Below are positions 44,414 through 59,879 of a stretch of DNA of 64,000 nt, one piece after another. The position numbers were made by a program, and so were the translations under genes. Each line of letters begins with the position of its first letter. Position 1 is the first letter of the stretch. Source of the DNA: a bacterium (GTDB lineage Bacteria > Patescibacteriota > JABMPQ01 > JAUVWW01); contig JAUVWW010000001.1 in NCBI GenBank assembly GCA_030603885.1, positions 2,680 through 66,679 of the forward strand, written 5' to 3'. The notes beneath the pieces are model-generated. The model was not told the DNA's origin, did not search any database, and was given only the letters and a program-made list of their open reading frames with translations.

Positions 44414-45838
44414 ATGAAAAATAAAGTTAAAATTTTATTAAGCATCAATATTATTCTTTGCTTCGTCTTTTTTTGCTTTAATTTAGCCAAAGCTTCCTAT
44501 AATACTATCCCACAAGTAAAGGTTTATAATCAAGATGCTACCCAGGTAAAGTCTACTTTTCTTGCTTATCAAGAAAGTTTTAGAGGAGGATTAAAGATTG
44601 CCGCAGGAGATATTGATGGAGATAGACGAGATGAAATTATCACTGGAGCAGGGCTAGATGGAGGACCCCATGTTCAGGTTTTTGATATGAATGGCAATTT
44701 TATGTGGCAGACTATGGCTTTTGATGAAGGGTTCAAAGGAGGCATTGATGTAGCAGCTGGTGATGTTAACGGAGATGGAAAGGATGAAATTATTGTTTCA
44801 CAACTTTCAGGTGGCCAAGCTTGGATCAAAATTTACAAAGCCAATAGACAGAGAACTATCCTAGCCAACTTTCTAGCTTTTGCTTCTAGTTTTGAAGGAG
44901 GATGTCACATAGCTTCAGGTGATGTTGATGGAGATGGAAAAGATGAGATAATAGCTGGAGCCGGATCTTCAGGAAAACCACACATACGAGTTTTTGATGA
45001 AAAAGGTAATTGGACTGGTTGGGATACTTTTGCTTTCCATGAAGATTTTAGAGGTGGAGTAGATCTAGCCTCAGAAGATATTGATAATGATGGTCGTGAT
45101 GAAATTATTGTGGCTCAAAATTCTTTTGGTCAAGCTTGGGTAAAAGTTTATCGAGCTAATAGAGAAAAAACTATTGTTTCTGAGTTTCTTGCTTATGCTC
45201 CAAATTTTGAAGGAGGAACAAATATTGGAGCAGGAGACATTGACCATGATGGTCGAGCAGAGATAATTGCAGGAGCCAATGCTGGTGGAGGACCACATGT
45301 AAAAGCATTCAAAGCTTCGGGTAAGCCTAAGAGTACAAGCTTCTTTCCTTATCCTCTAGATTTTCAGGGAGGAGTAAATGTGGCTGTAGGAAATTTACAA
45401 AGGGATTCAACTAATGAAATAATTACTTCTCCGGGGAAAAAATTACCTGAAGGAAGAGTAGATTTATACAAGTATATTGAAATAGATCTTTCATCTCAGA
45501 TTCTAAAATACTTTGAAAATGGACATAAAGTAGATGAGTATTATATTTCTTCTGGAGTATGGCGCCATCCAACTCCTAAAGGAGAATTTAGCGTTTATTC
45601 CAAACGTCTTTTTACTAGAATGACCTGGTATTATGGTCCTGATAATCCTGATAATTATGATTTAGCCAATGTACCTCATGTTCTATCCTTTCTTGGTCCT
45701 TATACTATTCACGGCGCTTATTGGCATAATAATTTTGGTTATAGAATGAGCCATGGCTGTGTCAATGAGCCGTTGGGTAAGGCAGCTCAGCTTTACAAAT
45801 GGGCTTCAATTGGGACACCGGTGATAATACACGATTAG
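44414..45838 (+). CDS. Secreted FG-GAP-repeat beta-propeller protein fused to a C-terminal L,D-transpeptidase (YkuD) domain
   Basis: Signal peptide. About 7 repeats of form D[IV][DN]GDG[KR]DEII. C-terminal HPTPKGEFSV...SHGCVN catalytic motif of L,D-transpeptidases. Confidence 0.7.
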   Translation: MKNKVKILLSINIILCFVFFCFNLAKASYNTIPQVKVYNQDATQVKSTFLAYQESFRGGLKIAAGDIDGDRRDEIITGAGLDGGPHVQVFDMNGNFMWQTMAFDEGFKGGIDVAAGDVNGDGKDEIIVSQLSGGQAWIKIYKANRQRTILANFLAFASSFEGGCHIASGDVDGDGKDEIIAGAGSSGKPHIRVFDEKGNWTGWDTFAFHEDFRGGVDLASEDIDNDGRDEIIVAQNSFGQAWVKVYRANREKTIVSEFLAYAPNFEGGTNIGAGDIDHDGRAEIIAGANAGGGPHVKAFKASGKPKSTSFFPYPLDFQGGVNVAVGNLQRDSTNEIITSPGKKLPEGRVDLYKYIEIDLSSQILKYFENGHKVDEYYISSGVWRHPTPKGEFSVYSKRLFTRMTWYYGPDNPDNYDLANVPHVLSFLGPYTIHGAYWHNNFGYRMSHGCVNEPLGKAAQLYKWASIGTPVIIHD

Positions 45839-45936
45839 CTGTAGCTCGCTCAAGAGCCTCGTTGCTCAGGAAGGAATCCTCCCGCCTTCGGTGGGCCCCT
45901 CCTAACTCAACCTCGGCAGGAATGGCTCGCTAGGAT
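45839..45936. other. About 100-bp GC-rich non-coding island (candidate structured RNA or element) upstream of secD
   Basis: Roughly 60% GC in an otherwise AT-rich genome. No start codon in any forward frame. Internal direct repeats (gctcgct x2; cctcg..caggaa x2). Possible cccgc-cuucg-gtggg hairpin. Confidence 0.3.
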
Positions 45937-45951
45937 AGTAAATTATTTATT

Positions 45952-47394
45952 ATGTCAATTCGCAAAAAAATCTGGTTAACTTTCGTAGGTATAATAATTT
46001 TAGTGGTCTTAGCAGGCTTAGTTGATTGGCCTAAGGGGCCAGATTTTAAAATTGGGCAGTTTTATAGAGAGCTTAAAGTGCACTTGGGTTTAGATCTTCA
46101 AGGGGGAACCCATCTTGTTTATGAGTGTGATTTATCCAAGATAAAACCAGAAGACTATGATGAGGCAGTAGCCGGGGTGAGGGATGTGATAGAGAGGAGA
46201 GTAAATGCTTTAGGGCTGGCAGAGCCAGTAGTTCAGACCGTAGCTGTTGAAGGACATTATAGATTGATTATTGAACTGGCCGGAATAAAAGATGTTGAAA
46301 AAGCACAAGCTGAAATTGGTCAGACGCCATCTTTAGATTTTAGAGAGCTAATTGGGATTCCTATGCCAGAAATGAAAGAAGGAGAAGGTGGGCTAGAGGA
46401 GACAAAAGAGGAGCCAAAAGAAGCAGAGGAGCCAGGAACAAGTTCCTTAAAACTATTTATTTCTCAAGCTTTAGCCCAAGAAGAATCTGAAGAGCCAGCT
46501 GAAGTAGAAGAAAAGACCGAGAAGATTGAAGAGCAACCTCAAGTTCAGACCATGTTTATCCCTACTAAATTAGCTGGCCATCATCTAAAAAGAGCTCAAT
46601 TGCAATTTGACAAGCAAACAAACCAGCCTCAGATTGGTCTTGAATTTGATGCCGAAGGAACAAAATTATTTGCTGAAATTACAGAAAGAAATGTAGGAAA
46701 ACCAGTAGCTATATTTTTGGATAATTATTTAATTTCTGCCCCCACTGTTCAAGAACCAATCAGAGAAGGAAAAGCAGTTGTCACTGGAGAGTTCACTTTA
46801 CAAGAGGCAAAAGACCTAGCCATGCGTCTTAATGCCGGAGCCTTGCCTGTTCCTATTAATTTAATTTCTCAGCAAAATGTGGGAGCCTCCTTAGGAAAGA
46901 TTTCCATAGAAAAAAGCCTTTTGGCTGGTGTTTTGGGTCTTTTATGTATAGCTTTGTTTATGATATTTTATTATAGATTTCTAGGTGCCCTGGCTACCTG
47001 TGCTTTGCTTATCTACGGTCTTATTGTTTTAGCTTTGTTTAAGTTAATTCCAGTCACTTTAACTTTGGCTGGGATGGCTGGATTTATCTTGTCTGTTGGC
47101 ATGGCTGTGGATGCTAATGTTCTGATTTTTGAACGAATGAAAGAAGAATTAAGATCTGGTAAGCCTCAAGGGGTTGCTGTGGATGAAGGATTTAAATATG
47201 CCTGGAGTGCTATTCGAGATTCTAATGTTTCTACCTTGATTACTTGTGTCATCCTAGCCTGGTTTGGAACTTCAATTATAAAAGGATTTGCTATTACTTT
47301 GGGTGTTGGAGTACTAGTTAGTATGTTTTCTGCTATAACCATTACTAGAACCTTTTTAAGACTGTTTTATGTTAAACATCATTCAAAAACGTAA
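45952..47394 (+). CDS. secD: Protein translocase subunit SecD
   Basis: N-terminal TM, periplasmic domain with acidic linker, C-terminal 5-6 TM SecD/F core. Confidence 0.9.
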   Translation: MSIRKKIWLTFVGIIILVVLAGLVDWPKGPDFKIGQFYRELKVHLGLDLQGGTHLVYECDLSKIKPEDYDEAVAGVRDVIERRVNALGLAEPVVQTVAVEGHYRLIIELAGIKDVEKAQAEIGQTPSLDFRELIGIPMPEMKEGEGGLEETKEEPKEAEEPGTSSLKLFISQALAQEESEEPAEVEEKTEKIEEQPQVQTMFIPTKLAGHHLKRAQLQFDKQTNQPQIGLEFDAEGTKLFAEITERNVGKPVAIFLDNYLISAPTVQEPIREGKAVVTGEFTLQEAKDLAMRLNAGALPVPINLISQQNVGASLGKISIEKSLLAGVLGLLCIALFMIFYYRFLGALATCALLIYGLIVLALFKLIPVTLTLAGMAGFILSVGMAVDANVLIFERMKEELRSGKPQGVAVDEGFKYAWSAIRDSNVSTLITCVILAWFGTSIIKGFAITLGVGVLVSMFSAITITRTFLRLFYVKHHSKT

Positions 47395-48262
47395 AATTTG
47401 GTTTATTCTTTCAGGAATAATTATTCTAGCTGGGATTGTCTCTCTGACGATGTGGGGCCTGAAATTGGGCATTGATTTTACTGGTGGGGCTCTAGTTGAA
47501 ATTGAATTCAAAGACAAAAGGCCTGATCTTTCTGAGATAGATAAAACCTTAGAGCCTCTTGAGCTTGAGCAGGCTCCTATTCAGCCTACAGGAGAGCGAG
47601 GAATTTTACTTCGGACAAAACCTCTTGATGAAGAAAAACATAAAGAGCTTCTTTCCACATTAGGAGATAAATTTGGTCAAATTGAAGAGATAAGATACGA
47701 AAGTATTGGACCTACCATAGGAAAAGAGTTGAGAAGAAAAGCTATTTATGCCATATCTGTAGCTTTAGTTTGTATTGTCTTATATATTGCTTATGCCTTC
47801 AGAAAAGTATCCAAAGAGATTTCTTCTTGGAAATTAGGTCTTTGTACCATTGGAGCTTTAGTTCATGATACCTTTATTGTTTTAGGAATCTTTTCTATTT
47901 TAGGACACTATTTTGGTATAGAAATAACAGCTTTGTTTATTGTGGCTCTTTTAACTATTTTAGGTTATTCAGTCAATGATACTATTGTAGTTTTTGATCG
48001 AATTAGAGAAAATCTACTTTCTGTTAAAGAAGAGACCTTTGATCGAACAGTAAACAAAAGTGTTAACCAGTGTTTGACTAGGTCTATTAATACTTCTACC
48101 ACTACTTTCTTAGTTCTTCTAGCCATCTTTTTATTTGGAGGAGAAACAATTCGATATTTCATTTTAGCTTTAATGATGGGAGTGATTGTGGGTACTTACT
48201 CATCAATTTTTATTGCTAGCCCACTTTTGGTGGCTTGGCAAAGGTTGACAAAAAGAACTTAG
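47369..48262 (+). CDS. secF: Protein translocase subunit SecF
   Basis: SecF architecture. Overlaps the secD 3' end. Confidence 0.9.
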   Translation: MLNIIQKRKIWFILSGIIILAGIVSLTMWGLKLGIDFTGGALVEIEFKDKRPDLSEIDKTLEPLELEQAPIQPTGERGILLRTKPLDEEKHKELLSTLGDKFGQIEEIRYESIGPTIGKELRRKAIYAISVALVCIVLYIAYAFRKVSKEISSWKLGLCTIGALVHDTFIVLGIFSILGHYFGIEITALFIVALLTILGYSVNDTIVVFDRIRENLLSVKEETFDRTVNKSVNQCLTRSINTSTTTFLVLLAIFLFGGETIRYFILALMMGVIVGTYSSIFIASPLLVAWQRLTKRT

Positions 48263-48271: not shown

Positions 48272-48325
48272 GCAGCCACTAGCTATACAATTCTATAGCC
48301 GGTGGCTCTTTATTTTCCTTTATTT
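48272..48325 (+). terminator. Candidate Rho-independent terminator after secF
   Basis: Imperfect about 13-bp stem (cagccactagctata / tatagccggtggctc) followed by tttattttcctttattt. Confidence 0.4.
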
Positions 48326-48368: not shown

Positions 48369-48397
48369 TTGACAGGCTTTTTTAGTTATGTTAAGAT
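48369..48397 (+). promoter_or_regulatory. Promoter TTGACA-N17-TAAGAT, with a second TTGACA 44 nt downstream
   Basis: ttgaca 48369-48374, taagat 48392-48397. Second ttgaca at 48413-48418 followed by a tatcat-like -10. Confidence 0.5.
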
Positions 48398-48497
48398 GGT
48401 ATATCAGATGTTTGACAGCTTTTAATTTGTATGATATCATTAATTATAGGAGAGTGAGTAAATCCATATAGTAGCTTAAATAAAAAGGAAAAAAGCC

Positions 48498-49550
48498 ATG
48501 CAAGAAAAACGACTACAAACAATTCAAGGAACAGATCCAAAAGAGGCAGTTGTTAGGCTGCTTAATGGCCTTGAAAAAAGATCAAAGGATATTATTATCC
48601 GACGTTTTGGATTGGAAGAAAAACCTAAAGAAACCTTAGAGAAAATTGGCCAATCTTATGGAATTACTCGAGAAAGGGTACGTCAGATTGAAGACAGCGT
48701 CTTAGCTAGTCTGCAAAAACCAAACAAATTAAAATATGTAAAGTCTCTTGAGGAAACCTTAATATCTGTACTAGAAGATAAAGGTGACATCGCAGAAAGA
48801 AATACTTTGTTCTCTTCTATTCAAAGCAAACTTTCTTCAGATATTCACCCCAATGTATTAGAGTTTGTTTTGGAACTTTCCCCAAAATTTACTAAATTTG
48901 CCGAAACCAAAGAACTCAAGCAAGCTTGGGCTACATCAACCTCCAGTCTTATAAAAGTCAAGAAAGTTATTGGAGGTTTCATAGATTACTTAAAAGAGAA
49001 AAATAAAGTGCTTGATACTCGGACAATGATAAATGCAGTTCAGGAAAATGCAGATGTTTCTCGAGATGCAATTTTGTCTTACATTAATTTATCAAAGAAC
49101 ATTAAAAAGAATCCCTATCATGAATGGGGACTTAAAGATTGGGGAACTATTTCACCTCAAGGAGTAAAAGATAAAGCATATATTGTCCTTATTAAGAAGA
49201 AAAAACCTCTTCACTTTAGAGAAATTACAGAGGCAATAAATCAAATAGATTTTGATAAAAGAAAAGCCACCTCCCGTACGGTACACAATGCTCTAATTAA
49301 AGATCCAAGATTTGTTTTAGTAGGAAGAGGTACTTATGGATTGACTGAGGCTGGATATAAACCAGGAACAGTGGCTGATATAGTAGCCGACGTATTAGCT
49401 AAATGCTCCCTAACAAGAGAAGAAATTATCCACGAGGTTCTAAAGCAAAGGTTGGTAAGGAAAAATACAATTCTTTTAGCTTTACAAGATTCTTCTAAAT
49501 TTAAGAAAGTAGGGGAGAAGTACTACTTGAATACAAAAATAAAAAGTTAA
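48498..49550 (+). CDS. Putative transcription factor: N-terminal sigma-70 region-4-like HTH plus C-terminal HARE-HTH-like domain
   Basis: IIIRRFGLEEKPKETLEKIGQSYGITRERVRQIEDSVLASL matches the sigma-70 r4 consensus. C-terminus HFREITEAINQI...RTVHNALIKDPRFVLVGRGTYGLTE matches the HARE-HTH pattern (RpoE-delta N-domain). Confidence 0.6.
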   Translation: MQEKRLQTIQGTDPKEAVVRLLNGLEKRSKDIIIRRFGLEEKPKETLEKIGQSYGITRERVRQIEDSVLASLQKPNKLKYVKSLEETLISVLEDKGDIAERNTLFSSIQSKLSSDIHPNVLEFVLELSPKFTKFAETKELKQAWATSTSSLIKVKKVIGGFIDYLKEKNKVLDTRTMINAVQENADVSRDAILSYINLSKNIKKNPYHEWGLKDWGTISPQGVKDKAYIVLIKKKKPLHFREITEAINQIDFDKRKATSRTVHNALIKDPRFVLVGRGTYGLTEAGYKPGTVADIVADVLAKCSLTREEIIHEVLKQRLVRKNTILLALQDSSKFKKVGEKYYLNTKIKS

Positions 49551-49557
49551 TTCACGA

Positions 49558-49581
49558 AACTTGTAACTTGTAACTTGTAAC
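49558..49581. repeat. Tandem heptanucleotide repeat (ACTTGTA)x3, reverse complement of the AGTTACA repeat at 4089-4123
   Basis: aacttgtaacttgtaacttgtaac read directly, between the stop of the HTH gene and the next ORF. Extra degenerate copies (gttacacg, agttacaag) at 49611-49638. Confidence 0.85.
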
Positions 49582-49591
49582 CCAAGAAATT

Positions 49592-50932
49592 TTGGTAGAG
49601 GGCTTGAGCTACACGTTACACGATTCGAGTTACAAGATCATGGTCGAATATTATCAGCCAACCTATGAGACCCCAGAGGAGCTTTTTGCTTTCTGGCTTT
49701 ATATTTTACGTTATACCTGGTGGGTATTTATATTAGTTGTTATATTTATTATTTGGTATGTCTGGTTTCGAAGGAAAAGACTGCAATATTTAGATTCCAT
49801 AGACTATATACTTTTAGCTATTGATGTCCCTGAAGAAAATACAAAAAATCCAAAATGTTTTGAACAAATATTTGCTGGTCTTCATGGCATTAAAACTACT
49901 CCCAATTTTGTAGAAAAATATTTTCAAGGAAAGATGCAGGAACCCTTTTCTTTAGAGATTGTAGGCATTGCTGGAAGAATAAGATTTTTAATCAGAACGC
50001 CTGATTATTATAGAGATCTTGTTGAGGCCCAGGTCTATGCCCAATATCCAGAGGCAGAAATTACTGAAGTAGAAGACTATGTTCAATTTATACCTTCTGA
50101 TTATCCTAATGACAAATATGATCTTTATGGAACAGATTTTGTACTAACCAAAGAAGATGCCTATCCTATAAGAAGTTATGAAGCTTTTCAAGACGAATTG
50201 AATAAAGAGGGTTTTCTTGATCCTATGGCTGCCATAACAGAAGTGCTATCTAAGTTGACTGAAGGAGAGCAAATCTGGCTCCAGTTTATTATTAGACCAA
50301 CGGGAGATAAATGGAAGGCTAATGGGGAAAGACTGGTTAAAAAGCTAATCGGGGCAAGAGCTCCGGAACATGAAGGTATTTTTCAGAAAACGTTTGTTAG
50401 GGGAATTCAGACTGCCCAGTATGCTTTAGAAAAGGGATTTATGAGTGTTCCAGAAGCAGAAACTCACTATAAGCCAGAGCCTCCTCCTTCTCTGATGCAG
50501 TATTTATCCCCGGGAGAAAGGGAAGTGGTGGAAGCCATAGGGCGCAATATTTCAAAGATAGGATTTGATGTAAAATTTAGGTTTATTTATGTAGCTAAGA
50601 AAGATGTTTTTTCAAAAAAGCACGGAGTGAATCCAATCAAGGGAGCGATGAAACAATTTAGTACAATTAATTTAAACGGATTTAAAGAATGTCTTAGGGT
50701 AAGAACTAAGGCGGTGTATTGGTTTAAAAAGAGAAGGATAGCCCAGAGGCAGAGAAGGATAATTCAGGCTTATAAGTTAAGAAGAATGGAAGTAGGAGCT
50801 CATCCCTTTGTCTTTAATACAGAGGAGCTAGCCACTGTTTTCCATTTTCCTTATATTACAGTGGAAGCCCCAACTATTAAATGGACAGAGACGAAGAAAG
50901 GAGAGCCGCCAAGGGATTTACCTCTTAGATAA
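49592..50932 (+). CDS. Membrane-anchored protein of unknown function, partner of the downstream ATPase
   Basis: N-terminal TM hairpin (LFAFWLYILRYTWWVFILVVIFIIWYVWF), then a roughly 380-aa soluble domain. The true start may be the second Met at 49640. Confidence 0.45.
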   Translation: MVEGLSYTLHDSSYKIMVEYYQPTYETPEELFAFWLYILRYTWWVFILVVIFIIWYVWFRRKRLQYLDSIDYILLAIDVPEENTKNPKCFEQIFAGLHGIKTTPNFVEKYFQGKMQEPFSLEIVGIAGRIRFLIRTPDYYRDLVEAQVYAQYPEAEITEVEDYVQFIPSDYPNDKYDLYGTDFVLTKEDAYPIRSYEAFQDELNKEGFLDPMAAITEVLSKLTEGEQIWLQFIIRPTGDKWKANGERLVKKLIGARAPEHEGIFQKTFVRGIQTAQYALEKGFMSVPEAETHYKPEPPPSLMQYLSPGEREVVEAIGRNISKIGFDVKFRFIYVAKKDVFSKKHGVNPIKGAMKQFSTINLNGFKECLRVRTKAVYWFKKRRIAQRQRRIIQAYKLRRMEVGAHPFVFNTEELATVFHFPYITVEAPTIKWTETKKGEPPRDLPLR

Positions 50933-50963
50933 ATTAAAAGTCTAGAGTCCAAAATTAAAAGTT

Positions 50964-52529
50964 ATGCCTGATGGTAATCAACTAACAATATTCGCCGAAA
51001 CAAACTTCCGCAATGTCCGGACCAAATTTGGTATTAAGCCAGATGATCGTCGTCGGCATATGTATATTATTGGAAAGACAGGAATGGGAAAGACTACCAT
51101 GCTGGAAAATATGGCTATTACTGATATTCAGGCAGGTCGAGGAGTGGGTATTGTTGATCCTCATGGTGAATTTGCAGAAAAAATGCTAGATTTTGTTCCC
51201 CCAAGTAGAATTAATGATGTAGTTTATTTTAATCCAGCAGATGTTGACTATCCCATTGCCTTTAATGTTATGGAAAAAGTTGATCCTTTACATAAGCATT
51301 TAGTGGCCTCGGGCATGATTGGAGTATTTAAAAAAATCTGGGCTGATTCTTGGGGACCTCGTTTAGAATATGTACTTAGAAATGCTATTCTAGCCCTTCT
51401 TGATTACCCAGAATCAACTCTTTTGGGAATTATGAGAATTTTGGTGGACAAGGCTTTTAGAAAGAGGGTAATTAGACAAATTAAAGATCCAGTAGTAAAG
51501 AGTTTTTGGGTGGATGAGTTTTCTCGCTATCCAGATAGGTTTCAGGCAGAAGCCATTGCTCCTATACAAAATAAAGTAGGTCAGTTTTTATCTACTTCTT
51601 TAATAAGAAATGTGGTTGGTCAGACTAAGTCTACTATTGATATGTCAGATATTATCAATAATAGAAAGATATTAATTCTAAATTTGGCCAAAGGAAAAAT
51701 AGGAGAAGACTCATCTGCTCTTATGGGAGCTATGTTGATTACTAAAATACAGCTTGCAGCCATGGAGAGAGTAGCTATTCCAGAAGAAAAAAGAACAGAT
51801 TTTTATCTTTATGTGGATGAATTTCAAAATTTTGCTACTGAGGCTTTTGCTAATATTCTATCTGAGGCAAGAAAGTATCGATTAGATCTTATTCTAGCTC
51901 ATCAATACATTACTCAGATGGAAGAGACGGTTAGGGATGCTGTCTTTGGCAATGTAGGAACTTTAGTCTGTTTTAGGGTAGGAGCAGCTGATGCCGAATT
52001 TTTAGAAAATGAGTTTATGCCAACTTTTACTATGAATGATTTGGTGAATTTAACTAAATATAATGTCTATCTAAAGCTGATGATTGATGGAGTAGCTAGT
52101 CATGCCTTTTCTGCTATCACTTTACCTCCTTTATCGACTGCTGCTTTTAAAGGGCATAAAGATAAGATTATTAAAGTTTCTCGAGAAAGATATACTAAAT
52201 CCCGAGTTGAAATAGAAGAAAAGATTGCTCGATGGTCTGGAATGGAGGCTAGGCCAGAAGAAGAAGGTGAAACAGAGATGGAAGTTCCAAGCGTAAAGTA
52301 TAAAGAGAAACCATTTCCACCCACCAAAGCTCCTTTTCCCGAAAAGGGAACACATAAACCATTTAAGAAAGCTTTTAAGAGGGTTTTAGAAAAAAAGAAG
52401 GAAATACCAGAAAAAATAGAAGCACCTCCTAAACCCACTCAAGGCGAAGCACGGGGTATACCAGAGCCTCCTCCCATTAGAAAGTCTGAAAAACAGATAA
52501 AGCCAGGGGAAGTGGTGGAGTTTGAGTAG
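50964..52529 (+). CDS. P-loop NTPase of the TraD/VirD4/TrwB coupling-protein / HerA-FtsK superfamily (no TM anchor of its own)
   Basis: Walker A IIGKTGMGKTT. IVDPHGEF (DPxGE motif of T4SS ATPases). VVYFNPAD (coupling-protein-like vFdP.d). Walker B YLYVDEFQNF, then LILAHQYITQ...GNVGTLVCFRVG. Low-complexity Pro/Lys-rich C-terminal tail. Confidence 0.6.
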   Translation: MPDGNQLTIFAETNFRNVRTKFGIKPDDRRRHMYIIGKTGMGKTTMLENMAITDIQAGRGVGIVDPHGEFAEKMLDFVPPSRINDVVYFNPADVDYPIAFNVMEKVDPLHKHLVASGMIGVFKKIWADSWGPRLEYVLRNAILALLDYPESTLLGIMRILVDKAFRKRVIRQIKDPVVKSFWVDEFSRYPDRFQAEAIAPIQNKVGQFLSTSLIRNVVGQTKSTIDMSDIINNRKILILNLAKGKIGEDSSALMGAMLITKIQLAAMERVAIPEEKRTDFYLYVDEFQNFATEAFANILSEARKYRLDLILAHQYITQMEETVRDAVFGNVGTLVCFRVGAADAEFLENEFMPTFTMNDLVNLTKYNVYLKLMIDGVASHAFSAITLPPLSTAAFKGHKDKIIKVSRERYTKSRVEIEEKIARWSGMEARPEEEGETEMEVPSVKYKEKPFPPTKAPFPEKGTHKPFKKAFKRVLEKKKEIPEKIEAPPKPTQGEARGIPEPPPIRKSEKQIKPGEVVEFE

Positions 52530-52563: not shown

Positions 52564-52588
52564 CCGAGGTTTTTATACCTCGGTTTTT
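52564..52588 (+). terminator. Rho-independent terminator
   Basis: ccgaggt-ttttat-acctcgg + ttttt. Confidence 0.55.
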
Positions 52589-52685: not shown

Positions 52686-54155
52686 ATGGCTAAGATTATC
52701 GGAGAAGGCCTGACCTTTGATGATTTACTACTTGTACCTCAGTACTCAGAGGTCTTGCCAAGAGAGGTAGATGTTACCACCTGGCTTTCTCGTCATATCC
52801 GGCTAAATATTCCCATTCTCAGTGCTCCTATGGATACAGTAACAGAGGCAGAAATGGCTATTATTATTGCTTGCCTAGGAGGAATAGGCATTATCCATAA
52901 GAACCTGTCACCAGATAGGCAAGCTCAAGAAGTGAGCAAGGTAAAGCGCTGGATGAGCTGGATGATTGCAGATCCTTATACTTTAGGTCAGGATAATTCA
53001 CTTAAGGATGCCAAGGAGCTGATGGAAAAACATAACATTGCTGGTATACCCATTGTGGATGACCAAAGAAAGCTGATGGGAATTATTACTAAGAGGGATT
53101 TGCATTTTGAGACCAATCTTGATCTAAAGATTGGAGAAGTGATGACCAGAGAAGTTATCACTGCTCATCAGGGTATTACCCAGAAGGAAGCAGAAGATCG
53201 GCTACATGTGAACAGAATTGAGAAGTTACCAGTGATAGATGAAGATAAAGTTCTTCGTGGACTAATTACCATCAGGGATATTGAGAAAAGGCATCGTTAT
53301 CCCGAGGCTTGTAAGGATGAGAAAGATAGACTTAGAGTAGGAGCAACAGTTGGAGTAGCTAAGGATACCGAAGAAAGAGCACAAGCTTTAATAGAAGCGG
53401 GAGTCGATGTTTTGATTGTTGACACAGCTCATGGACATTCCAAAGGGGTCTTTGAGACAGTGAAAATGATCAGGAAGAAGTTTGGTAATGTAGAGCTTAT
53501 TGCTGGAAATGTGGCTACAGCAGAAGGGGCTAAATTTCTCATTGATGCTGGAGTAGATGCTATAAAGGTAGGTGTAGGTCCTGGTTCTATTTGTACTGCT
53601 CGGGTGATAGCTGGCGCTGGTGTTCCTCAGATAACCGCCATAATGGATGTAGCCAAAAAAGTAAGGATTCCAGTTATTGCAGATGGAGGAGTTCGATTTT
53701 CTGGGGATATTACCAAGGCTTTGGCAGCTGGAGCAGATACAGTCATGATTGGCAATCTTTTGGCTGGTTGTAAAGAGGGTCCTGGAGAAGAGATACTCTT
53801 AGGAGGAAGAAGATATAAAAGCTACAGAGGGATGGGTTCAATAGCCGCTATGGAAGCTGGAAGCAAAGATAGATACCACCAAGAACACCAAGAAGAAGCT
53901 AAAAAACTGGTTCCTGAAGGAGTAGAAGGAAGGGTACCCTTTAAAGGTCCAGGGGAGGATGTAGTTCATCAACTTGTTGGAGGTTTGAGATCTGGTATGG
54001 GATATTGTGGTGCTCGTAATATTCAGGAGCTTCAAGAGAAGGCAAAGTTTATCCGTATTACTCAGGCAGGTGGAATAGAGAGTCATCCTCACGATGTGAC
54101 TATTACCAAAGAATCCCCTAACTACGAAGTTTCAGGAAGGGGGTGGTCAAAATGA
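52686..54155 (+). CDS. guaB: Inosine-5'-monophosphate dehydrogenase
   Basis: TIM barrel with tandem CBS insert, catalytic loop GSICTARV, 489 aa. Confidence 0.95.
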
Positions 54156-55540
54156 TTAAATTGGTTGAGGGACTACAGTGGGGAGATGAAGGGAAAGGGA
54201 AGATTGTGGATTGGCTCGTTGGAAAGGAAGGCTATGATATTGTAGCTCGATGGCAAGGTGGAGCCAATGCTGGACATACCGTCTGGAAAAATGGTAAGAA
54301 GTTTGTCCTACACCTTATTCCTTCAGGAATCCTTCACAAAGATGTCAAATGTGTTTTGGGTAATGGTATGGTTGTTAACCCTGTTGCTCTATTTGATGAA
54401 ATAGAAGAACTAAAGAAGAAGGGGATCAAGGTAGAAGGCCGACTGTTCATCAGCGACCGATGCCATGTAACTTTTGACTTCCATCTTCGAGAAGAAAAGT
54501 ATTCTGAGGAAGTCAAAGGTAAAGACAAGATAGATTCGACTCTTAGGGGTATTGGACCTACCTATCATGACAAGTTTGGAAGGATAGGAATCAGAATGTG
54601 CGATTTTATTAATAAAAAAACTCTGGTTTCTAAGCTTGAGGCGAATCTTGAAAAGAAAAACTGGATGTTCCGTTTTGGATACGGGAAATTGAGAGGTCTG
54701 GAGGAAGAGATTAAAGCTTTACTTGCAAAGGATCTTCCACCTGAACAGGCAAAAGAGAAAGTACATGAGCTCTTTATGGGTTATGGAAAAGAGAGGTGTC
54801 TAGACAAAGAGAAGATTATTGCCAAGTATCTCGAACTTAGCGAAAAGATCAGACCTTTTGTCCATGATACTTCAGTCTTTCTCAATGATGCTATTAGGGA
54901 GGGTGAGAACATACTCTGTGAAGGAGCTCAAGGAACTCTCTTAGACGTTGATCATGGGACTTATCCATATGTGACTTCATCAAACCCTGTGGCTGGAGGA
55001 GCTTGTGTTGGCTTGGGAATAGGCCCTACCAAAATTGATCAAGTTATTGGGGTAGCCAAGGCTTATACAACTCGCGTGGGAGCTGGACCATTTCCTACTG
55101 AGCAGGATAACCAGATCGGTGAGAAAATGCGTGAGATAGGGGAAGAATACGGAGCTACTACTGGCCGGCCAAGAAGATGTGGATGGTTTGACGCTGTGGC
55201 TGTTCGGCATTCTGTGACGGTTAGTGGAGCTAATAGTTTAGTTATCACTAAGCTTGATGTTCTTGATGAATTTGAGACCCTCCGCATTTGTACTGGCTAT
55301 GTATACAAAGGCAAGTTTATTGATTTTCCAGCTCAAATAGAAATACTTGAGGAAGTCAAGCCTATCTACCTGGATTTGTCTGGCTGGGAGGAATCTACAC
55401 GAGGAATAAGGAGAATAGAAGATTTGCCTCCTCGAGCTTTGGACTATTTGGCTAAGATTTCTGTACTTACAGCTACTAAAATATCTTTTGTTTCTGTGGG
55501 TCCGAAAGAAAGTCAGATAGCCGTGAGATTCACGAGGTGA
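54143..55540 (+). CDS. purA: Adenylosuccinate synthetase
   Basis: GLQWGDEGKGK P-loop, GIGPTY, TTGRPRRCGW motifs. Confidence 0.95.
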   Translation: MVKMIKLVEGLQWGDEGKGKIVDWLVGKEGYDIVARWQGGANAGHTVWKNGKKFVLHLIPSGILHKDVKCVLGNGMVVNPVALFDEIEELKKKGIKVEGRLFISDRCHVTFDFHLREEKYSEEVKGKDKIDSTLRGIGPTYHDKFGRIGIRMCDFINKKTLVSKLEANLEKKNWMFRFGYGKLRGLEEEIKALLAKDLPPEQAKEKVHELFMGYGKERCLDKEKIIAKYLELSEKIRPFVHDTSVFLNDAIREGENILCEGAQGTLLDVDHGTYPYVTSSNPVAGGACVGLGIGPTKIDQVIGVAKAYTTRVGAGPFPTEQDNQIGEKMREIGEEYGATTGRPRRCGWFDAVAVRHSVTVSGANSLVITKLDVLDEFETLRICTGYVYKGKFIDFPAQIEILEEVKPIYLDLSGWEESTRGIRRIEDLPPRALDYLAKISVLTATKISFVSVGPKESQIAVRFTR

Positions 55541-55546
55541 ATTTTA

Positions 55547-55591
55547 GGAAGAGTTTGTCCTTTAGTTTTAGGACAAACTCTTCTTTTTTAT
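55547..55591 (+). terminator. Rho-independent terminator after purA
   Basis: ggaagagtttgtcc-tttagtttta-ggacaaactcttc + tttttta. Confidence 0.6.
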
Positions 55592-55611
55592 TCATTTAAA
55601 ATATGTGGAAT

Positions 55612-55640
55612 TTGACAAAGTTTTAAAGTACTGATAAACT
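55612..55640 (+). promoter_or_regulatory. Promoter TTGACA-N17-TAAACT for purH
   Basis: ttgaca 55612-55617, taaact 55635-55640. Confidence 0.5.
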
Positions 55641-55690
55641 GACATATCTTTTTGTAGGTAACTTAAACAATTAAAGAAAAGGAGGTTGTT

Positions 55691-57274
55691 ATGGCTAAAA
55701 AGAGAGCCCTGATTAGTGTTTGGAATAAGACCGGGATTGACAAATTTGCTCGAGATTTAGTCAAGCTTGGTTGGGAGATTGTTTCTTCAGGTGGTACGGC
55801 TAAAGTTCTTCGTCAAGCTGGTATTCCGGTTATTCCTATTAATCGAGTAACTGGCAATCCAGAAGCTTTTGATGGTCGGATGAAGACCATTAGTTTTGCT
55901 GTAGAATCTGCTTTGCTTTTTGATAGAAACAATTCTAAGCACGTAAGGCAGGCGAAGAAATTAGGAATTGTTCCTATTGATCTGGTGGTCTGTAATCTTT
56001 ACCCTTTTGAGGAGGTAATTGCTAAAAAAGGTTGTACACTCAAAGAGGCCATCGAGAACATCGACATTGGCGGACCAACCATGATCAGAGCAGCGGCAAA
56101 GAATTTTGCTGGTGGGGTAACAGTAGTCATCGACCCCAAAGACTATTCTATGGTCTTAGAGCATCTTAAAGAAGGAGAGGTTCCTTCAGAAGTTAGACGT
56201 GAACTGGCCATCAAAGTCTTTACCAGAATGGCTGGCTACGATGGAGCTATTGACGAGTATCTGGCTAAAGAGATTCGCAAAGAACCTGCTATGAGAATCC
56301 ATCTGACAAAAGGCAAGAAACTCCGCTACGGCGAAAATCCCCATCAGAAAGGTTGGTTTTACGAGGTACCAGCGTGGGCAAAGGGCGACTCTCTGGCTAT
56401 TCAGAAGTTTAAGCAGATCCAGGGAAAACAGCTTTCCTTTAATAACATTCTGGATATACATGGTGCTCTTTGTGCCATATCTCATTATGGTGGGAAATAC
56501 CCCGTATGTGTGGTGATTAAGCACAGTAATCCCTGTGGACTGGCTATTCGAGATAATACCCTCGATGCCTATATGGAAGCTTGGTATCTTGGTGATCCTC
56601 TGGCTGCTTTCGGAAGTATTATTGCTGTTAATCGTCCTGTCAATTACGATCTTGCTTGGCAGATGTTGGCCGATAGGAAGTTTTTTGAGGTTCTTCTTGC
56701 TCCGAGTGTTGAAGTCGATGCCTTAGAGCTATTCCAAACTAAGAAAAATCTGCGAGTCTTAATAAATCCCGCTCTAAAAACACCGTATTTACACAAAGGT
56801 TTAGATTTTAAAAAAGTAAGAGGAGGAATGCTGGTTCAAGAGATTGATACTCATGAGGTTAAGGCAAGAGACTTAAAAATAGTAACTAAGGTAAAACCCA
56901 CCAAAAAACAGATTGATGAGCTACTCTTTGCCTGGAAGATAACCAAGATCTCTAAGTCTAATGCAGTGGTGATTACTAAAGACCATACCCTGATTTCTTC
57001 TGGAGTGGGACAGCAAGACAGAAAAAGGTGTTGTGAATTATGTGTGGTAAAGGCTGGACCAAGAGCCAAAGGAGCCGTGGCAAGCTCAGATGCTTTTTTC
57101 CCTTTTCCTGATGGGACAGAAGTTCTCATAGACGCTGTGATTGGTGCTATTATTCAGCCTGGGGGTTCTATTCGTGATAAAAAGAGTATTGAGCTTTGTG
57201 ATAAAAGAGGTATTGCTATGGTTTTTACTTCAAAAGATCCGAAGAAGAACATGATTAGGTGTTTCAGACACTAA
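55691..57274 (+). CDS. purH: Bifunctional AICAR formyltransferase / IMP cyclohydrolase
   Basis: MGS-like N-terminus ALISVWNKTGI...SSGGTAK and C-terminal AICARFT domain, 527 aa. Confidence 0.95.
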   Translation: MAKKRALISVWNKTGIDKFARDLVKLGWEIVSSGGTAKVLRQAGIPVIPINRVTGNPEAFDGRMKTISFAVESALLFDRNNSKHVRQAKKLGIVPIDLVVCNLYPFEEVIAKKGCTLKEAIENIDIGGPTMIRAAAKNFAGGVTVVIDPKDYSMVLEHLKEGEVPSEVRRELAIKVFTRMAGYDGAIDEYLAKEIRKEPAMRIHLTKGKKLRYGENPHQKGWFYEVPAWAKGDSLAIQKFKQIQGKQLSFNNILDIHGALCAISHYGGKYPVCVVIKHSNPCGLAIRDNTLDAYMEAWYLGDPLAAFGSIIAVNRPVNYDLAWQMLADRKFFEVLLAPSVEVDALELFQTKKNLRVLINPALKTPYLHKGLDFKKVRGGMLVQEIDTHEVKARDLKIVTKVKPTKKQIDELLFAWKITKISKSNAVVITKDHTLISSGVGQQDRKRCCELCVVKAGPRAKGAVASSDAFFPFPDGTEVLIDAVIGAIIQPGGSIRDKKSIELCDKRGIAMVFTSKDPKKNMIRCFRH

Positions 57275-57282
57275 TCAGTATA

Positions 57283-57320
57283 CCGCTTTCGTCGAGGAAA
57301 CTCGGCGAAGCGGTTTTTTT
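57283..57320 (+). terminator. Rho-independent terminator after purH
   Basis: ccgctttcgtcgag-gaaa-ctcggcgaagcgg + ttttttt. Confidence 0.6.
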
Positions 57321-57424
57321 ATTCTAGTTGACACAAAAAATTCCTTATGATAGCTTAATATAACAGTTTTTAGTAGGCACTTTATAAACCATGAAAAGTC
57401 CGCTTGGCGGACAGGAGGTGTAAG

Positions 57425-58717
57425 ATGATAGAGAGATATAGTCTACCAGCAATGAAAGCTATTTGGAATTTAGAAAATAAATTCCAAAAATGGCTAGATG
57501 TGGAGATAGCAGTATTAGAGGCCGAGTTTGAACTGGATAAGATAGATAAGTCAGTTGCGGAATTAACGAAACAGAATGCAGCCTTCTCGGTAGAACGTAT
57601 TAAAGAAATTGATAAAATGATCGAACATGATGTTATGGCTTTTATCAGAAACGTGGTTGAGAACTTGCCTGATGTAGTAAAACAGTATTTCCACGCTGGT
57701 CTTACTTCATATGATATAGTGGATACTGCTTTAAGCTTGATGATGCAATGTTCTGTTAAGTTGATTCGTACCAAGCTTGTAGAAATACTGGATGATATTG
57801 ATAAACTAGCTAAGGATAATAAAGATAAACCTCAAATAGGAAGGACTCACGGAGTGCATGCTGAGCCTACAAGCTGCGGACTTAAATTCTTAAATTGGTA
57901 TGATGAGATGGAAAGGAACAAAGGGAGGCTAGATCGTATTGAGACGCTCTTAGCAGGCAAGATTTCTGGAGCAGTAGGTAATTATGCTAACATTGACCCA
58001 CGTATTGAGCCCATTGCCTGCAAAAAACTAGGCATAAAGCCAGCCAGGATTTCAACCCAGATTATAAGTCGTGACATCCATGCTGAGTATATATCTCAGT
58101 TAGCTATAATTGCTGGATCCTTGGCAAAGTTTACTACTGAGATCAGAAATCTCCAGAGAACTGAGATTCGTGAGATGCAAGAACCGTTTAAGAAAAAACA
58201 GAAAGGATCTTCAGCTATGCCGCACAAGAAGAACCCAGTTATCTGCGAAAGGATCACTGGTATAGCCAGAATGATTCGGGGAATGGTAGTTCCTGCACTT
58301 GAGAATCAAGACACCTGGCATGAGCGAGATTTGGCTAATTCTGCTCCAGAGCGAGGTATATTGGCCGAAGCCCCTACTTATCTATATTATATATTAGATA
58401 GATTTCAGTATGTTCTTAGAGGTTTGAAAATCTATCCAGAGAGAATGATGGAGAATATCTGGCAGACAAAAGGAGTCATCTTTTCTCAGAAGGTTATGTT
58501 GGCTTTAGCTGATAAAGGTATGGCACGAGAACAGGCTCACAATTTGGTCCAGGAGTTAGCCTTGAGATCGTGGGGAGAAGATCTGGATTTTAAGGAGCTG
58601 TTATTAGAAGATGAACGTATAACAAATCTTCTTAATAAAAAGGAAATTGAGGCTTGTTTTGATCTCAAGCCATATCTTAAGAACGTAGATTTAATCTTTA
58701 AACGTTTTGGAATGTAA
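57425..58717 (+). CDS. purB: Adenylosuccinate lyase
   Basis: Start placed at ATG 57425 (MIERYSLPAM..., canonical PurB N-terminus) preceded by SD ggaggtg, rather than the listed upstream ATG 57404. Fumarase/ASL signature GSSAMPHKKNP. Confidence 0.9.
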   Translation: MIERYSLPAMKAIWNLENKFQKWLDVEIAVLEAEFELDKIDKSVAELTKQNAAFSVERIKEIDKMIEHDVMAFIRNVVENLPDVVKQYFHAGLTSYDIVDTALSLMMQCSVKLIRTKLVEILDDIDKLAKDNKDKPQIGRTHGVHAEPTSCGLKFLNWYDEMERNKGRLDRIETLLAGKISGAVGNYANIDPRIEPIACKKLGIKPARISTQIISRDIHAEYISQLAIIAGSLAKFTTEIRNLQRTEIREMQEPFKKKQKGSSAMPHKKNPVICERITGIARMIRGMVVPALENQDTWHERDLANSAPERGILAEAPTYLYYILDRFQYVLRGLKIYPERMMENIWQTKGVIFSQKVMLALADKGMAREQAHNLVQELALRSWGEDLDFKELLLEDERITNLLNKKEIEACFDLKPYLKNVDLIFKRFGM

Positions 58718-58729
58718 AGGAGGTGTAAG

Positions 58730-59668
58730 ATGTTTGATGCAAAGGATTTTATTGAGAAGAAAGTAGAGGAGATACAGCGTAGGATAGGAAAGGAAGAAGC
58801 TGTTGTAGCTTTTTCTGGAGGAGTGGATTCGGCTGTTTGTACTGTGCTGGCTTTAAAGGCTTTAAAGAAAGGACAATTAAGAGTTTTTACCTTAGATGAT
58901 GGTCTGAGAAGAGAAGGAGAACCAGAATGGGTAGTTAGAGTTTTTGATGAAATTATCCCAGTGGAAATTATCTCTGTTCAAGACGATTGTTTTCGGGCTT
59001 TGAGAGGTAAAATCACTGGAGATGAAAAGAGGACTGTCTATTCTAACTGGTTTGGTCATATTTGTGGCAAAACAGCTTATGACTTTGGGGCCAAATATTC
59101 CTTTTTTGGAAGTAATGCTTTGGATAGTAAAGAAACTAAAAGAGGAACCCAGAAACAACACAATGCTTGGGCAGACATGGGAGTTGATACTGAAAAGCAA
59201 TTTGGTTTTCAAGTGGTTGAACCGGTAAAGGAACTATTTAAGGATGAGATTCGGGAAGTAGCCCGAGCTTTAGGCATACCTTCTGAGATATCTGAACGGA
59301 TGCCTTTTCCTGGGCCAGGATTGGCTATTCGGGTTAAAGGTGAAGTCACTCCGGAAAAAGTGGTTCTAATAAGAACAACCACTACCATTATTGAAAATGC
59401 TTTGTTGTCCTTTAGGCCATTTCAATGTTTGGGATGTCTTTTTCAGGACCAGGCTACTGGAATTCGGAATGATATTGGGGTCTTTGGCCACATTATTTCT
59501 ATAAGATGTGTGGATTCCAAAGATAGTGGCAAAACAGCTACCCCTACTAGAATCCCAAATGAACTTCAAGACAATATTGCTAAAAGAATACTTGCCGAGA
59601 TTCCTGAAGTTGTAAGGGTTGTTTTTGACCGGACACCCAAACCTCCAGGTCGAATCGAATACGAATGA
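58730..59668 (+). CDS. guaA: GMP synthase ATP-pyrophosphatase subunit (subunit B of a split, archaeal-type GuaA)
   Basis: PP-loop SGGVDSAV. QKQHNAW..., EPVKELFKDEIREVARALGIPSEISERMPFPGPGLAIRVKGEVT. C-terminal dimerisation tail KPPGRIEYE (compare KPPATIEWE). No GATase domain present. Confidence 0.8.
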   Translation: MFDAKDFIEKKVEEIQRRIGKEEAVVAFSGGVDSAVCTVLALKALKKGQLRVFTLDDGLRREGEPEWVVRVFDEIIPVEIISVQDDCFRALRGKITGDEKRTVYSNWFGHICGKTAYDFGAKYSFFGSNALDSKETKRGTQKQHNAWADMGVDTEKQFGFQVVEPVKELFKDEIREVARALGIPSEISERMPFPGPGLAIRVKGEVTPEKVVLIRTTTTIIENALLSFRPFQCLGCLFQDQATGIRNDIGVFGHIISIRCVDSKDSGKTATPTRIPNELQDNIAKRILAEIPEVVRVVFDRTPKPPGRIEYE

Positions 59669-59682
59669 GTATGATTAAAGAG

Positions 59683-59720
59683 CCGCCCAAAGGATTTTCC
59701 CTCTTTGGGCGGTATTTTTT
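59683..59720 (+). terminator. Rho-independent terminator
   Basis: ccgcccaaag-(10 nt)-ctttgggcgg + tatttttt. Confidence 0.6.
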
Positions 59721-59729
59721 CACAGAAAT

Positions 59730-59773
59730 ACTGAAAATCACTAAAGCGCTGAATCTAAGGATAAATTTTCAGT
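59730..59773. promoter_or_regulatory. Perfect 9-bp inverted repeat ACTGAAAAT-N26-ATTTTCAGT upstream of a TTGACT promoter; candidate operator
   Basis: Arms at 59730-59738 and 59765-59773 read directly. The -35-like ttgact is at 59792-59797. Confidence 0.35.
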
Positions 59774-59879
59774 GCCTCAGTATCATTAAATTTGACTTAG
59801 ATATTTTTATTGTGCTATCTTTTAACATCTAGCATAAAGCTAAAGTAAGGCACATTTTAACTTAAAAGGGAGGTACAAG

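Follow-up and report, generated by a model that had tools for sequence, protein, structure and literature searches.

The Patescibacteria, epibionts with very small genomes, make up a large part of the diversity of bacteria. The VirB4 ATPase of known type IV systems is docked onto the inner-membrane complex by its N-terminal domain, and on pGO1/pSK41 the gene for VirB4 (TrsE) is immediately preceded by one for a protein resembling the VirB4 N-terminus (TrsD). The T4SS of Patescibacteria belongs to the MPF-FATA-like type and lacks a cis-encoded coupling protein (PMC10633639; available passages of PMC12102498). According to the available passages of the latter report (Quinonero-Coronel et al. 2025), homologues of type IV coupling proteins (T4CPs), recognized as VirD4-profile matches and of unknown function, were present in 2,918 of 3,035 Patescibacteria genomes (96%), VirB4 was detected in 2,417 genomes, and 148 of 5,713 T4CP homologues were located near virB4. 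For S. epibionticum, the accessible part of the literature reports the T4CP homologue, only presumed to be an orthologue of the ATPase described below, as dispensable and the T4SS as essential.

The window analysed here, a 64,000-nt stretch of contig JAUVWW010000001.1 from a Patescibacteriota genome, carries an ATPase gene (gene B) preceded by a gene for a membrane protein (gene A) and a gene for a helix-turn-helix (HTH) protein. Gene B is probably the same gene as the orphan T4CP homologues of PMC12102498, the available passages of which describe no DUF8128 partner, VirB4-like fold, split/fusion relation, HTH gene or secDF synteny. The features of the locus are collected in Table 1.

Table 1. 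Features of the HTH–A–B locus (window coordinates).
Feature	Coordinates	Strand	Remarks
Two sigma-70-type promoter-like sites	48369..48440	+	TTGACA, 17-nt spacer, TG-extended -10
HTH gene, 350-aa protein	48498..49550	+	sigma-70 region 4 at aa 21-74, HARE-HTH at aa 223-284
Heptamer tandem repeat (AACTTGT)x3.4	49558..49581	.	HTH–A spacer
Gene A, 430-aa DUF8128 protein	49640..50932	+	probable start ATG 49640; extendable to TTG 49592
A, predicted transmembrane helix, aa 15-45	49682..49774	+	only stretch with hydropathy >1.6
A, predicted cytoplasmic domain, aa ~55-405	49802..50854	+	VirB4-N-terminal-domain-like fold; conserved EELATxxHFP end, then EPPxxLP tail
Gene B, 521-aa soluble P-loop ATPase	50964..52529	+	VirB4/VirD4 (TrwB) clade
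B, Walker A GKTGMGKT, aa 37-44	51072..51095	+	G37, K38, T39, G40, G42, K43 invariant
B, Walker B LYVDE, aa 282-286	51807..51821	+	D285, E286 invariant
B, C-terminal tail, aa 431-521	52254..52526	+	disordered, E/P/K-rich; two conserved short motifs, HKPFKKAF and terminal KPGEVVEF
Terminator-like hairpin CCGAGGT/ACCTCGG, then TTTTT	52564..52588	+	read by eye; not flagged by the terminator scan

Architecture of the A and B proteins

Both open reading frames of the pair proved real, as the initial annotation of this DNA had described them, and all of the motifs listed there for B (GKTGMGKTT, DPHGE, VVYFNPAD, VDEF and LILAHQY) were found in the protein. The invariance of the Walker A and Walker B residues was judged across 32 orthologues. 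The profile search suggested at that stage placed B above the curated Pfam cutoffs for TrwB_AAD_bind (49 bits, cutoff 20.5) and TraG-D_C (27.2, cutoff 22), and with the NCBIfam TraD/VirD4 equivalog models every score was far under cutoff. Hydropathy analysis revealed no hydrophobic segment in B, in agreement with the earlier view that the ATPase carries no membrane anchor of its own. The C-terminal tail was modelled with a pLDDT below 50 at aa 431–468 and 479–510 and with a short helix at aa 466–479. Both of its short motifs recur in B orthologues, many of which possess a CxxC-x17-CxxC zinc ribbon in this region instead. Among the best 120 database relatives, the identity to B was 60–76% and all those with a named source came from Patescibacteria. 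A homologue of B (40% identical) was also noticed on a Sulfitobacter plasmid, with transposases all round and thus in an uninformative context. Within the window, neither A nor B had paralogues.

The A protein was previously taken to be 446 aa long, with a start at TTG 49592. Homology to the closest relative, an 89% identical protein, opens exactly at ATG 49640, so this codon is probably the conserved start, the longer form is probably wrong and A is read as a protein of 430 aa. It had also been described as belonging to no recognizable family. Searches of Pfam, NCBIfam and PDB sequences gave nothing significant for A, and only PHROGs, the precomputed Pfam annotation of its homologues and structure comparison were informative. 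In the precomputed annotation, PF26449 (DUF8128) was found on all of the best 120 of 1,139 homologues, the 89% identical one included. A search of cluster representatives returned 2,249 clusters related to A at E<=1e-3, and a pattern scan hit at least 593 stretches in which a relative is encoded. No paper on DUF8128 was found by a full-text literature search.

The N-terminal transmembrane hairpin assigned to A in the initial annotation was not supported, as the protein has one hydrophobic segment only and the AlphaFold2 model shows a single long helix over aa 12–53. The charges flanking the membrane helix are zero positive and four negative before it and RRKR after it; the N-terminus is predicted to lie outside and the C-terminus in the cytoplasm. 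In the structure comparison, the large domain following the helix had a fold like that of the VirB4 N-terminal domain, and the second-best match was EccE, a type VII secretion component. The likeness of A to VirB4 is one of structure, since the A profile matched neither TrsD of pSK41 at the sequence level nor a plasmid VirB4 (E 0.81).

Operon structure and genomic neighbourhood

The sigma-r4/HARE-HTH gene noted earlier ahead of A was confirmed (Pfam Sigma70_r4 1.3e-11, HARE-HTH 4.6e-12) and is the first gene of a conserved HTH–A–B triad, forming the same unit with A and B. Matches of its product in the PDB were to sigma region 4 only. It has at least 7,975 homologues in the database, those with a named source being Patescibacteria and some being annotated as the RNA polymerase delta subunit. 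The two promoter-like sites 5' of the HTH gene start at 48369 and 48412, with 10/12 and 11/12 matches, respectively, and no site of comparable strength was found between the three genes in the promoter scan. These sites are likely the start of a three-gene transcription unit. The gap between A and B is 31 nt, not 32 nt as first counted, and only 2–15 nt in several relatives. A terminator had been proposed to close the pair, and a hairpin followed by a T-run was indeed discerned by eye after B, upstream of the guaB promoter. A similar hairpin with a T-run, also read by eye and unflagged in the terminator scan, follows secF at about 48273–48317.

The heptamer repeat reported ahead of A is real. 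It sits within roughly 80 nt which are missing from the closest relative (L092), where the HTH–A gap is only 10 nt. The repeat is an insertion specific to the lineage and probably plays no part in the mechanism. Due to its absence from this relative, the repeat was rejected as a regulatory element.

Of the 77 species loci for which the flank was long enough, 62 had B directly after A, and in the 15 other species the downstream flank of A contained no B. Of 80 species loci, 48 had an HTH gene upstream of A, and SecD–SecF were the direct upstream neighbours in 52 of the 80 species. The complete triad was present in all seven related contigs examined, one of them away from secDF (L098). The A–B pairing pointed out in the initial annotation is conserved. 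The block secA, FG-GAP/YkuD, secD, secF, HTH, A, B was found again in distant lineages. When 34 ORFs of the window, comprising most of the large ones, were scanned with Pfam, no T4SS, relaxase or integrase genes were detected, in line with the lack of other T4SS components observed before; the scanned neighbours were housekeeping genes and the GC content was unremarkable. Partners of the VirB3, VirB6 or VirB8 type were absent from the scanned ORFs and from the related loci examined, and no linkage to a relaxase or T4SS was seen in these loci. The HTH–A–B unit is a core-chromosome operon widespread in Patescibacteria and no mobile element.

The nearest relatives outside Patescibacteria are carried by plasmids and phages, as would be expected if the pair were left over from an integrated conjugative element or prophage in decay. 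Such an origin is already contradicted by the conservation data and is hardly conceivable: both ORFs are intact, the catalytic residues are invariant in the 32 orthologues, GC is normal, neither repeats nor, among the scanned ORFs, integrase or relaxase genes border the module, 62 of the 77 species loci examined have kept the locus and the stretches encoding an A relative number at least 593. A role as the ATPase component of a defence system against phages, akin to DndH/DptH or MADS Mad8, is very improbable as well. The DndH/DptH C-terminal domain and Mad8 do belong to the clade of B, but the Dnd and MADS partner genes are absent here, and the scanned neighbours included neither a nuclease or methylase nor any other partner for defence. 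In PADLOC, the hits came from the ATPase B, A gave none and the HTH protein was hit only via sigma region 4. The 60–76% identity among the best 120 relatives of B and, according to the available passages of PMC12102498, the occurrence of T4CP homologues in 96% of the genomes of the phylum are the opposite of the patchy distribution and fast evolution of defence genes. The defence module put forward in the initial annotation thus does not agree with the core housekeeping context, the conserved synteny and the wide conservation of the operon. A connection with type IV pili, also put forward there, was rejected because pilC and pilMN are located 44 kb away and this neighbourhood is not conserved.

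The association with secDF raises the question of whether A and B energize protein export or the handling of surface proteins together with the Sec machinery. Besides the frequency of SecD–SecF directly upstream (52/80 species) and the recurrence of the secA...B block in distant lineages, A is still next to secF in 10 of the 15 species without a downstream B, and EccE as the second-best structural match of A points in the same direction. Nevertheless, such a role appears unlikely. The triad is also found away from secDF, in the window secF is parted from the triad by a hairpin resembling a terminator and by promoter-like sites of the triad's own, and conserved gene order alone may be historical. 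To our knowledge, no VirD4-class ATPase works with Sec.

A membrane anchor, a motor of the FtsK/HerA superfamily and a winged-helix DNA-binding protein encoded in one operon, along with the very high conservation of B, typical of core functions, would also fit an FtsK-like translocase for chromosome segregation or division, with the HTH protein as a DNA reader of the FtsK gamma type. A replacement of FtsK is weakened by the annotated ftsK of TM7x, and a HAS-barrel, FtsK alpha/gamma domains and NurA or division partners, as known for HerA/FtsK, were not found for A and B. This assignment seems quite improbable.

Fused relatives in phages and plasmids

The pair had been read as a unit from the adjacency of its genes, and such a reading was strengthened by relatives in other lineages in which A and B are fused. 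The profile of PHROG 5156 matched A (1.6e-15) at positions 35–354 and B (4e-59) at positions 406–817 of its 824 positions, and gp156 of phage G aligned with both proteins. An 883-aa protein encoded on a Shouchella clausii plasmid matched the A profile with a probability of 97.5% over 267 columns and aligned to B over 80% of its length. Judged by these alignments, A and B correspond to the two halves of single fused proteins of Bacillus phages and of a Bacillota conjugative-type plasmid. The match to the fused form found on an Actinomycetota plasmid is weaker. The N-terminal parts of the fused proteins from an Embleya plasmid (E 0.0027) and from the haloarchaeon Haladaptatus (E 0.00067) gave weak, co-linear matches of low probability to A, which are suggestive.

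The fused proteins, annotated as "DUF87 / AAA-like / T4SS DNA-transfer family", contain the same two modules in the same order, with significant matches in the case of Bacillus and Shouchella. They differ from the pair in being single polypeptides of 812–953 aa (in Bacillus phages, such as phage G gp156 and Tsamsa-like ones, and on plasmids), and an N-terminal membrane helix is not evident in phage G gp156 or the Shouchella protein. The fused proteins are also encoded on mobile elements beside genes for Replic_Relax, VirB4-like and cell-wall-hydrolase proteins. Next to the Shouchella gene are a Replic_Relax gene and a T4SS operon, which includes a VirB4 of its own (AAA_10), TcpC and a cell-wall hydrolase; no further coupling protein is annotated. 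On the Embleya plasmid, the order is VirB4-like, fused protein, Replic_Relax and NlpC/P60.

The location of fused relatives inside MPF-FATA-type conjugation clusters is relevant to the possibility that A and B constitute the coupling protein which the chromosomal T4SS of Patescibacteria is missing, encoded in trans and recruiting its substrates. The T4SS of the phylum is of the MPF-FATA-like type and lacks a coupling protein in cis (PMC10633639; available passages of PMC12102498), and the VirB4-N-terminal-like fold modelled for A could dock on VirB3/VirB8-type partners in the manner of VirB4. This is a narrower version of the explanation preferred below and it can be entertained only tentatively. 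No T4SS gene was present in any neighbourhood examined, the available passages of PMC12102498 give more genomes with a coupling-protein homologue (2,918) than with VirB4 (2,417) and only 148 of 5,713 homologues near virB4, and the S. epibionticum homologue, if orthologous to B as presumed, is reported in the accessible text as dispensable in the presence of an essential T4SS. The lack of a nearby relaxase or T4SS, the lower number of genomes with VirB4 and this dispensability argue against simple T4SS coupling.

Proposed function and comparison with known systems

In the preferred explanation, held with reasonable confidence, A and B form a two-part, membrane-tethered translocation ATPase of the coupling type (VirB4/VirD4 class) fixed in the core genome. 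The broader proposal of the initial annotation, an uncharacterised module for DNA or protein translocation, stands, with a putative function. The A protein brings one membrane helix along with a cytoplasmic domain resembling the VirB4 N-terminal domain in shape, and B brings a RecA-like motor with an all-helical insertion. Since A and B are fused elsewhere and their genes are adjacent, the two proteins presumably contact each other. By analogy with TrwB and VirB4, B may form a ring which is held by A and hydrolyses ATP at the membrane, handing or pushing the substrate into a conduit in the membrane. A candidate for the latter is the MPF-FATA-like type IV system, encoded at another place on the chromosome; a different channel could serve as well. 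A nucleic acid, probably DNA, would be the preferred substrate, and the HTH protein, presumably co-transcribed with A and B, may serve as a DNA-binding adaptor or regulator.

A further-reaching proposal, rather unlikely at present, is that the HTH–DUF8128–ATPase operon encodes an autonomous system for nucleic-acid translocation which occurs across Patescibacteria, derives from a monoderm conjugative coupling protein that kept the VirB4 N-terminal domain and is now independent of the T4SS. If true, it would represent an architectural intermediate between VirB4 and VirD4 and could move DNA or RNA across the membrane. Patescibacteria are dependent on their hosts for nucleotides.

The analysis provides a Pfam domain of unknown function, DUF8128, with a fold and a genomic context. 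The orphan ATPase gains an anatomy, in the form of an obligate-looking DUF8128 membrane partner with a VirB4-like putative docking domain, as well as a DNA-binding operon partner and a split/fusion link to conjugative coupling proteins of monoderm plasmids and phages. An unknown ATPase is thereby turned into a testable three-gene system, provided that a tractable strain possesses the triad; genetics is now available in this phylum for Saccharibacteria. The architecture of A and B may also bear on how VirD4 arose from VirB4.

In comparison with the type IV coupling proteins VirD4, TrwB and TraD (Pfam TrwB_AAD_bind, T4SS-DNA_transf), the membrane anchor is located here on a separate protein, A, and not on the ATPase, and a domain of about 350 aa resembling the VirB4 N-terminal domain is placed between anchor and motor. 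Unlike them, the pair has no relaxase or T4SS in cis, and B is a gene of the core chromosome, whereas the intact Walker A and Walker B motifs are common to both. The pair differs from VirB4 in giving no AAA_10 or CagE match and only 16 bits with VirB4_CagE (TIGR00929; cutoff 643), and in having no VirB3, VirB6 or VirB8 gene nearby. With VirB4/TrwK, A and B nonetheless share the two-domain architecture of an N-terminal domain followed by a C-terminal ATPase.

Conservation and organisation of the HTH–A–B unit

The two-gene module proposed in the initial annotation, A (DUF8128 membrane protein) and B (P-loop ATPase), was present as two open reading frames, preceded by a gene for a sigma-70 region 4/HARE-HTH protein (HTH gene). 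A pattern scan with one genome per species gave at least 593 stretches that code for an A relative. Many record titles gave Patescibacteria lineages, among them Kerfeld-, Uhr-, Magasanik-, Buchanan-, Kuenen-, Sung-, Terry- and Doudnabacteria, the remaining ones being different or generic names taken as placeholders. Among the 80 best loci, B was located immediately 3' of A in 62 and three others were cut off (62/77), so that the pairing held in the gene-neighbourhood check suggested earlier. The HTH gene was immediately 5' of A in 48 of the 80 and SecD–SecF lay ahead of the A unit in 52. B was best conserved in these loci (59–73% identity; A 37–51%, SecF 42–56%). As described for the window, the order Sigma70_r4/HARE-HTH, DUF8128, ATPase was found in all seven contigs looked up from A or B, with the third gene partial and unannotated in two truncated ones (L004 and L092, the closest relative). 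In several contigs, A and B were 2–15 nt apart; one triad was located away from secDF.

DUF8128 stood without an ATPase gene in the ~4 kb downstream in about 19% of species, several of them named Magasanikbacteria (loci L037, L046, L049, L054, L056, L061, L063, L065, L068, L070, L073, L081 and others); at L049, the following genes were on the opposite strand. A still followed secF in 10 of 15 species without downstream B. The block secA, FG-GAP/YkuD L,D-transpeptidase, secD and secF, directly 5' of the triad, recurred together with it in distant Patescibacteria (L003, L005, L006 and L092). This synteny with secDF, which may be functional or frozen, is the one argument for a possible role of A and B in Sec-linked export. 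HTH–A–B is a core gene set in many Patescibacteria lineages. The core-gene pattern contradicts the defence module considered earlier, and the conservation of A and B likewise contradicts a mobile-element remnant. Pfam scans of 34 window ORFs found no T4SS (as initially annotated), relaxase, integrase or defence genes, and the window contained no paralogue of A or B.

Two strong promoter-like sites preceded the HTH gene. Hairpins with T-runs were read by eye at secF and after B, the latter corresponding to the terminator proposed for the pair; neither was picked up by the terminator scan. Because the promoter-like sites precede the HTH gene and the hairpins bound the region, HTH–A–B appears to be one transcription unit. 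The heptamer repeat noted earlier was confirmed. The HTH–A spacer of ~80 nt containing it (about 49551–49639) was missing in the closest relative, where the gap was 10 nt, and is suggestive of a microsatellite or a recent insertion at this locus.

Features of the triad and its surroundings (window positions)
Feature	Position	Strand	Remarks
Type IV pilus genes	67-6083		pilC (T2SSF), 640-aa LVIVD-repeat protein, fused PilM-PilN (498 aa)
De novo nucleotide-synthesis genes	18658-24944 and 52686-60919		
secA to secF block	44414-48262		
SecD	45952-47394		480 aa
HTH gene	48498-49550	+	
Perfect heptamer repeat (AACTTGT)x3.4	49558-49581		inside HTH–A spacer
Gene A ORF	49592-50932		co-directional with B; as annotated, TTG start
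Gene B ORF	50964-52529		co-directional with A
Antisense ORF	52100-52438	-	112 aa
Disordered B tail	52254-52526	+	E/P/K-rich; conserved HKPFKKAF (consensus HQPFKKAF) and terminal KPGEVVEF (consensus KPGExVxF)
Hairpin with T-run	52564-52588		followed by guaB promoter

The triad was followed by guaB, purA, purH and purB, with mur/ftsW, pyr, dnaK/dnaJ and aspS farther off. All gene-like ORFs of at least 120 aa were on the + strand, GC content was even and GC skew was positive in every 2-kb window (1–64000), which fits one replichore with strong gene/replication co-orientation. The pyrimidine genes comprised pyrD, a dihydroorotase-like amidohydrolase gene, pyrF and two adjacent carbamoyltransferase genes; the purine set further included a GMP-synthase C-terminal gene and purC. 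The window thus held many genes of de novo nucleotide synthesis, pathways usually described as missing from Patescibacteria. SecD carried an acidic low-complexity insert (EEPKEAEEPGTSS...EESEEPAEVEEKTEKIEEQ), in place of which the SecD proteins of several relatives (559–561 aa) had a rotamase (PpiC) domain. The pilC and pilM-pilN genes were 44 kb from the triad and positionally unrelated, which speaks against the suggested pilus link.

The ATPase B

All motifs quoted initially for B were found, and 32 aligned orthologues showed no variation in the residues of Walker A (G37, K38, T39, G40, G42, K43) or Walker B (D285, E286). B scored above the Pfam gathering cutoffs for TrwB_AAD_bind (49 bits), TraG-D_C and DUF87, a PDB sequence search returned TrwB and DotL, and comparison figures were ~16 with HerA and 12.5 with FtsK. 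Based on these matches, B is a member of the VirB4/VirD4 clade of the FtsK-HerA superfamily, as the initial family call had it. Coupling protein and VirB4 could not be told apart by the fold or by pairwise profile comparison with pSK41 proteins (TrsE, E 5.6e-6; TrsK, E 2e-4). An FtsK-like role of A and B is weakened by the annotation of ftsK in TM7x. A hydropathy scan of the whole protein revealed no hydrophobic segment, in agreement with the anchor-less form described.

The 120 closest relatives among the matches listed were 60–76% identical at 80–100% query coverage. At the C-terminus, many orthologues had a zinc ribbon (CxxC-x17-CxxC; PF23477); the window copy had no such ribbon but the E/P/K-rich tail in its place. 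The antisense ORF within this low-complexity tail is most likely a compositional artefact and not a gene. A stand-alone 395-aa homologue (L089; 40% identical) was encoded on an alphaproteobacterial plasmid of Sulfitobacter mediterraneus (NZ_CP081110, 99994–101181), in a neighbourhood of transposases plus a recombinase and without an annotated DUF8128 partner. Such closeness is unusual for a non-Patescibacteria relative.

The membrane protein A

A had a single hydrophobic segment (aa 15–45), confirming the N-terminal membrane segment, but the AlphaFold2 model showed one long helix and not the hairpin initially described. Acidic residues before the segment and RRKR after it predict an outside N-terminus and a cytoplasmic C-terminus. 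The annotated TTG start is probably wrong, as homology to the closest relative (89% identical protein) begins at the ATG equivalent to 49640.

Local Pfam, NCBIfam and PDB sequence searches gave no significant match for A. However, A, initially placed in no recognisable family, had 1,139 homologues with DUF8128 (PF26449) pre-annotated in 120/120 among the matches listed; a cluster-representative search returned 2,249 clusters at E<=1e-3. Since A and B did not match each other and B matched structure 4ag5, which comprises the VirB4 C-terminal domain only, we infer that A is the counterpart of the VirB4 N-terminal domain. C-terminal of the fold, the otherwise disordered tail contained a conserved EPPxxLP motif, and longer orthologues had a second motif, PPxNLPF, at the extreme C-terminus beyond a disordered linker. 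The tail motifs of A and B were seen in alignments A1 and A2 and in P0311, P0357 and P0385. DUF8128 was not mentioned in the searchable literature.

A proposed two-part ATPase and its fused relatives

A and B corresponded to successive parts of single proteins. In PHROG 5156 (824 positions, function unknown), A aligned at 35–354 and B at 406–817; in Bacillus phage G gp156 (825 aa), the first ~170 residues aligned to A and 381–753 to B. An 883-aa "DUF87 domain-containing protein" of a 31.5-kb Shouchella clausii plasmid matched the A profile (97.5% probability, 267 columns, including the EELATxxHFP motif) and aligned across 80% of B.

Our conclusion is that the two proteins make up one membrane-tethered ATPase belonging to the coupling-protein/VirB4 class; A would be the anchor with a VirB4-type docking domain and B the motor. 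B would form a ring contacting A and passing a substrate to a conduit, which could be a T4SS encoded elsewhere or another channel. A nucleic-acid substrate is weakly preferred because of the relaxase linkage of the fused relatives, the zinc ribbon in many B orthologues and the DNA-binding protein encoded in the operon. The VirB4-like fold of A, the split/fusion relationship, the three-gene operon and the core-gene status are new here.

According to Quinonero-Coronel et al. 2025 (PMC12102498), 2,918 of 3,035 Patescibacteria genomes encode 5,713 VirD4-type homologues, which may not be B orthologues; 148 of these are near virB4, and VirB4 is present in 2,417 genomes. In S. epibionticum, the VirD4-type homologue, again possibly not a B orthologue, is reported there as non-essential and the T4SS as essential, and the authors leave room for exaptation of the Patescibacteria homologues. 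The S. epibionticum T4SS was described as having no recognisable coupling or relaxase proteins (Wang et al. 2023, PMC10633639).

The fused genes were found in conjugation-type contexts. On the Shouchella plasmid, the fused gene is immediately followed by Replic_Relax and a T4SS-type cluster (TcpC, AAA_10 VirB4, lytic transglycosylase/C40 peptidase), and no second coupling protein is annotated on this plasmid. In phage vB_BcoS-136, it adjoins genes for a LytM peptidase, Replic_Relax and a tyrosine recombinase, and in phage G, a VirB4/TraG-like ATPase gene. An Embleya plasmid has the order PrgI family, XF1762 family, ATP-binding protein, 812-aa fused protein (N-terminal match to A weak, E 0.0027), Replic_Relax and NlpC/P60. 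Going by where it is encoded, the fused form serves as coupling protein in these plasmids and phages.
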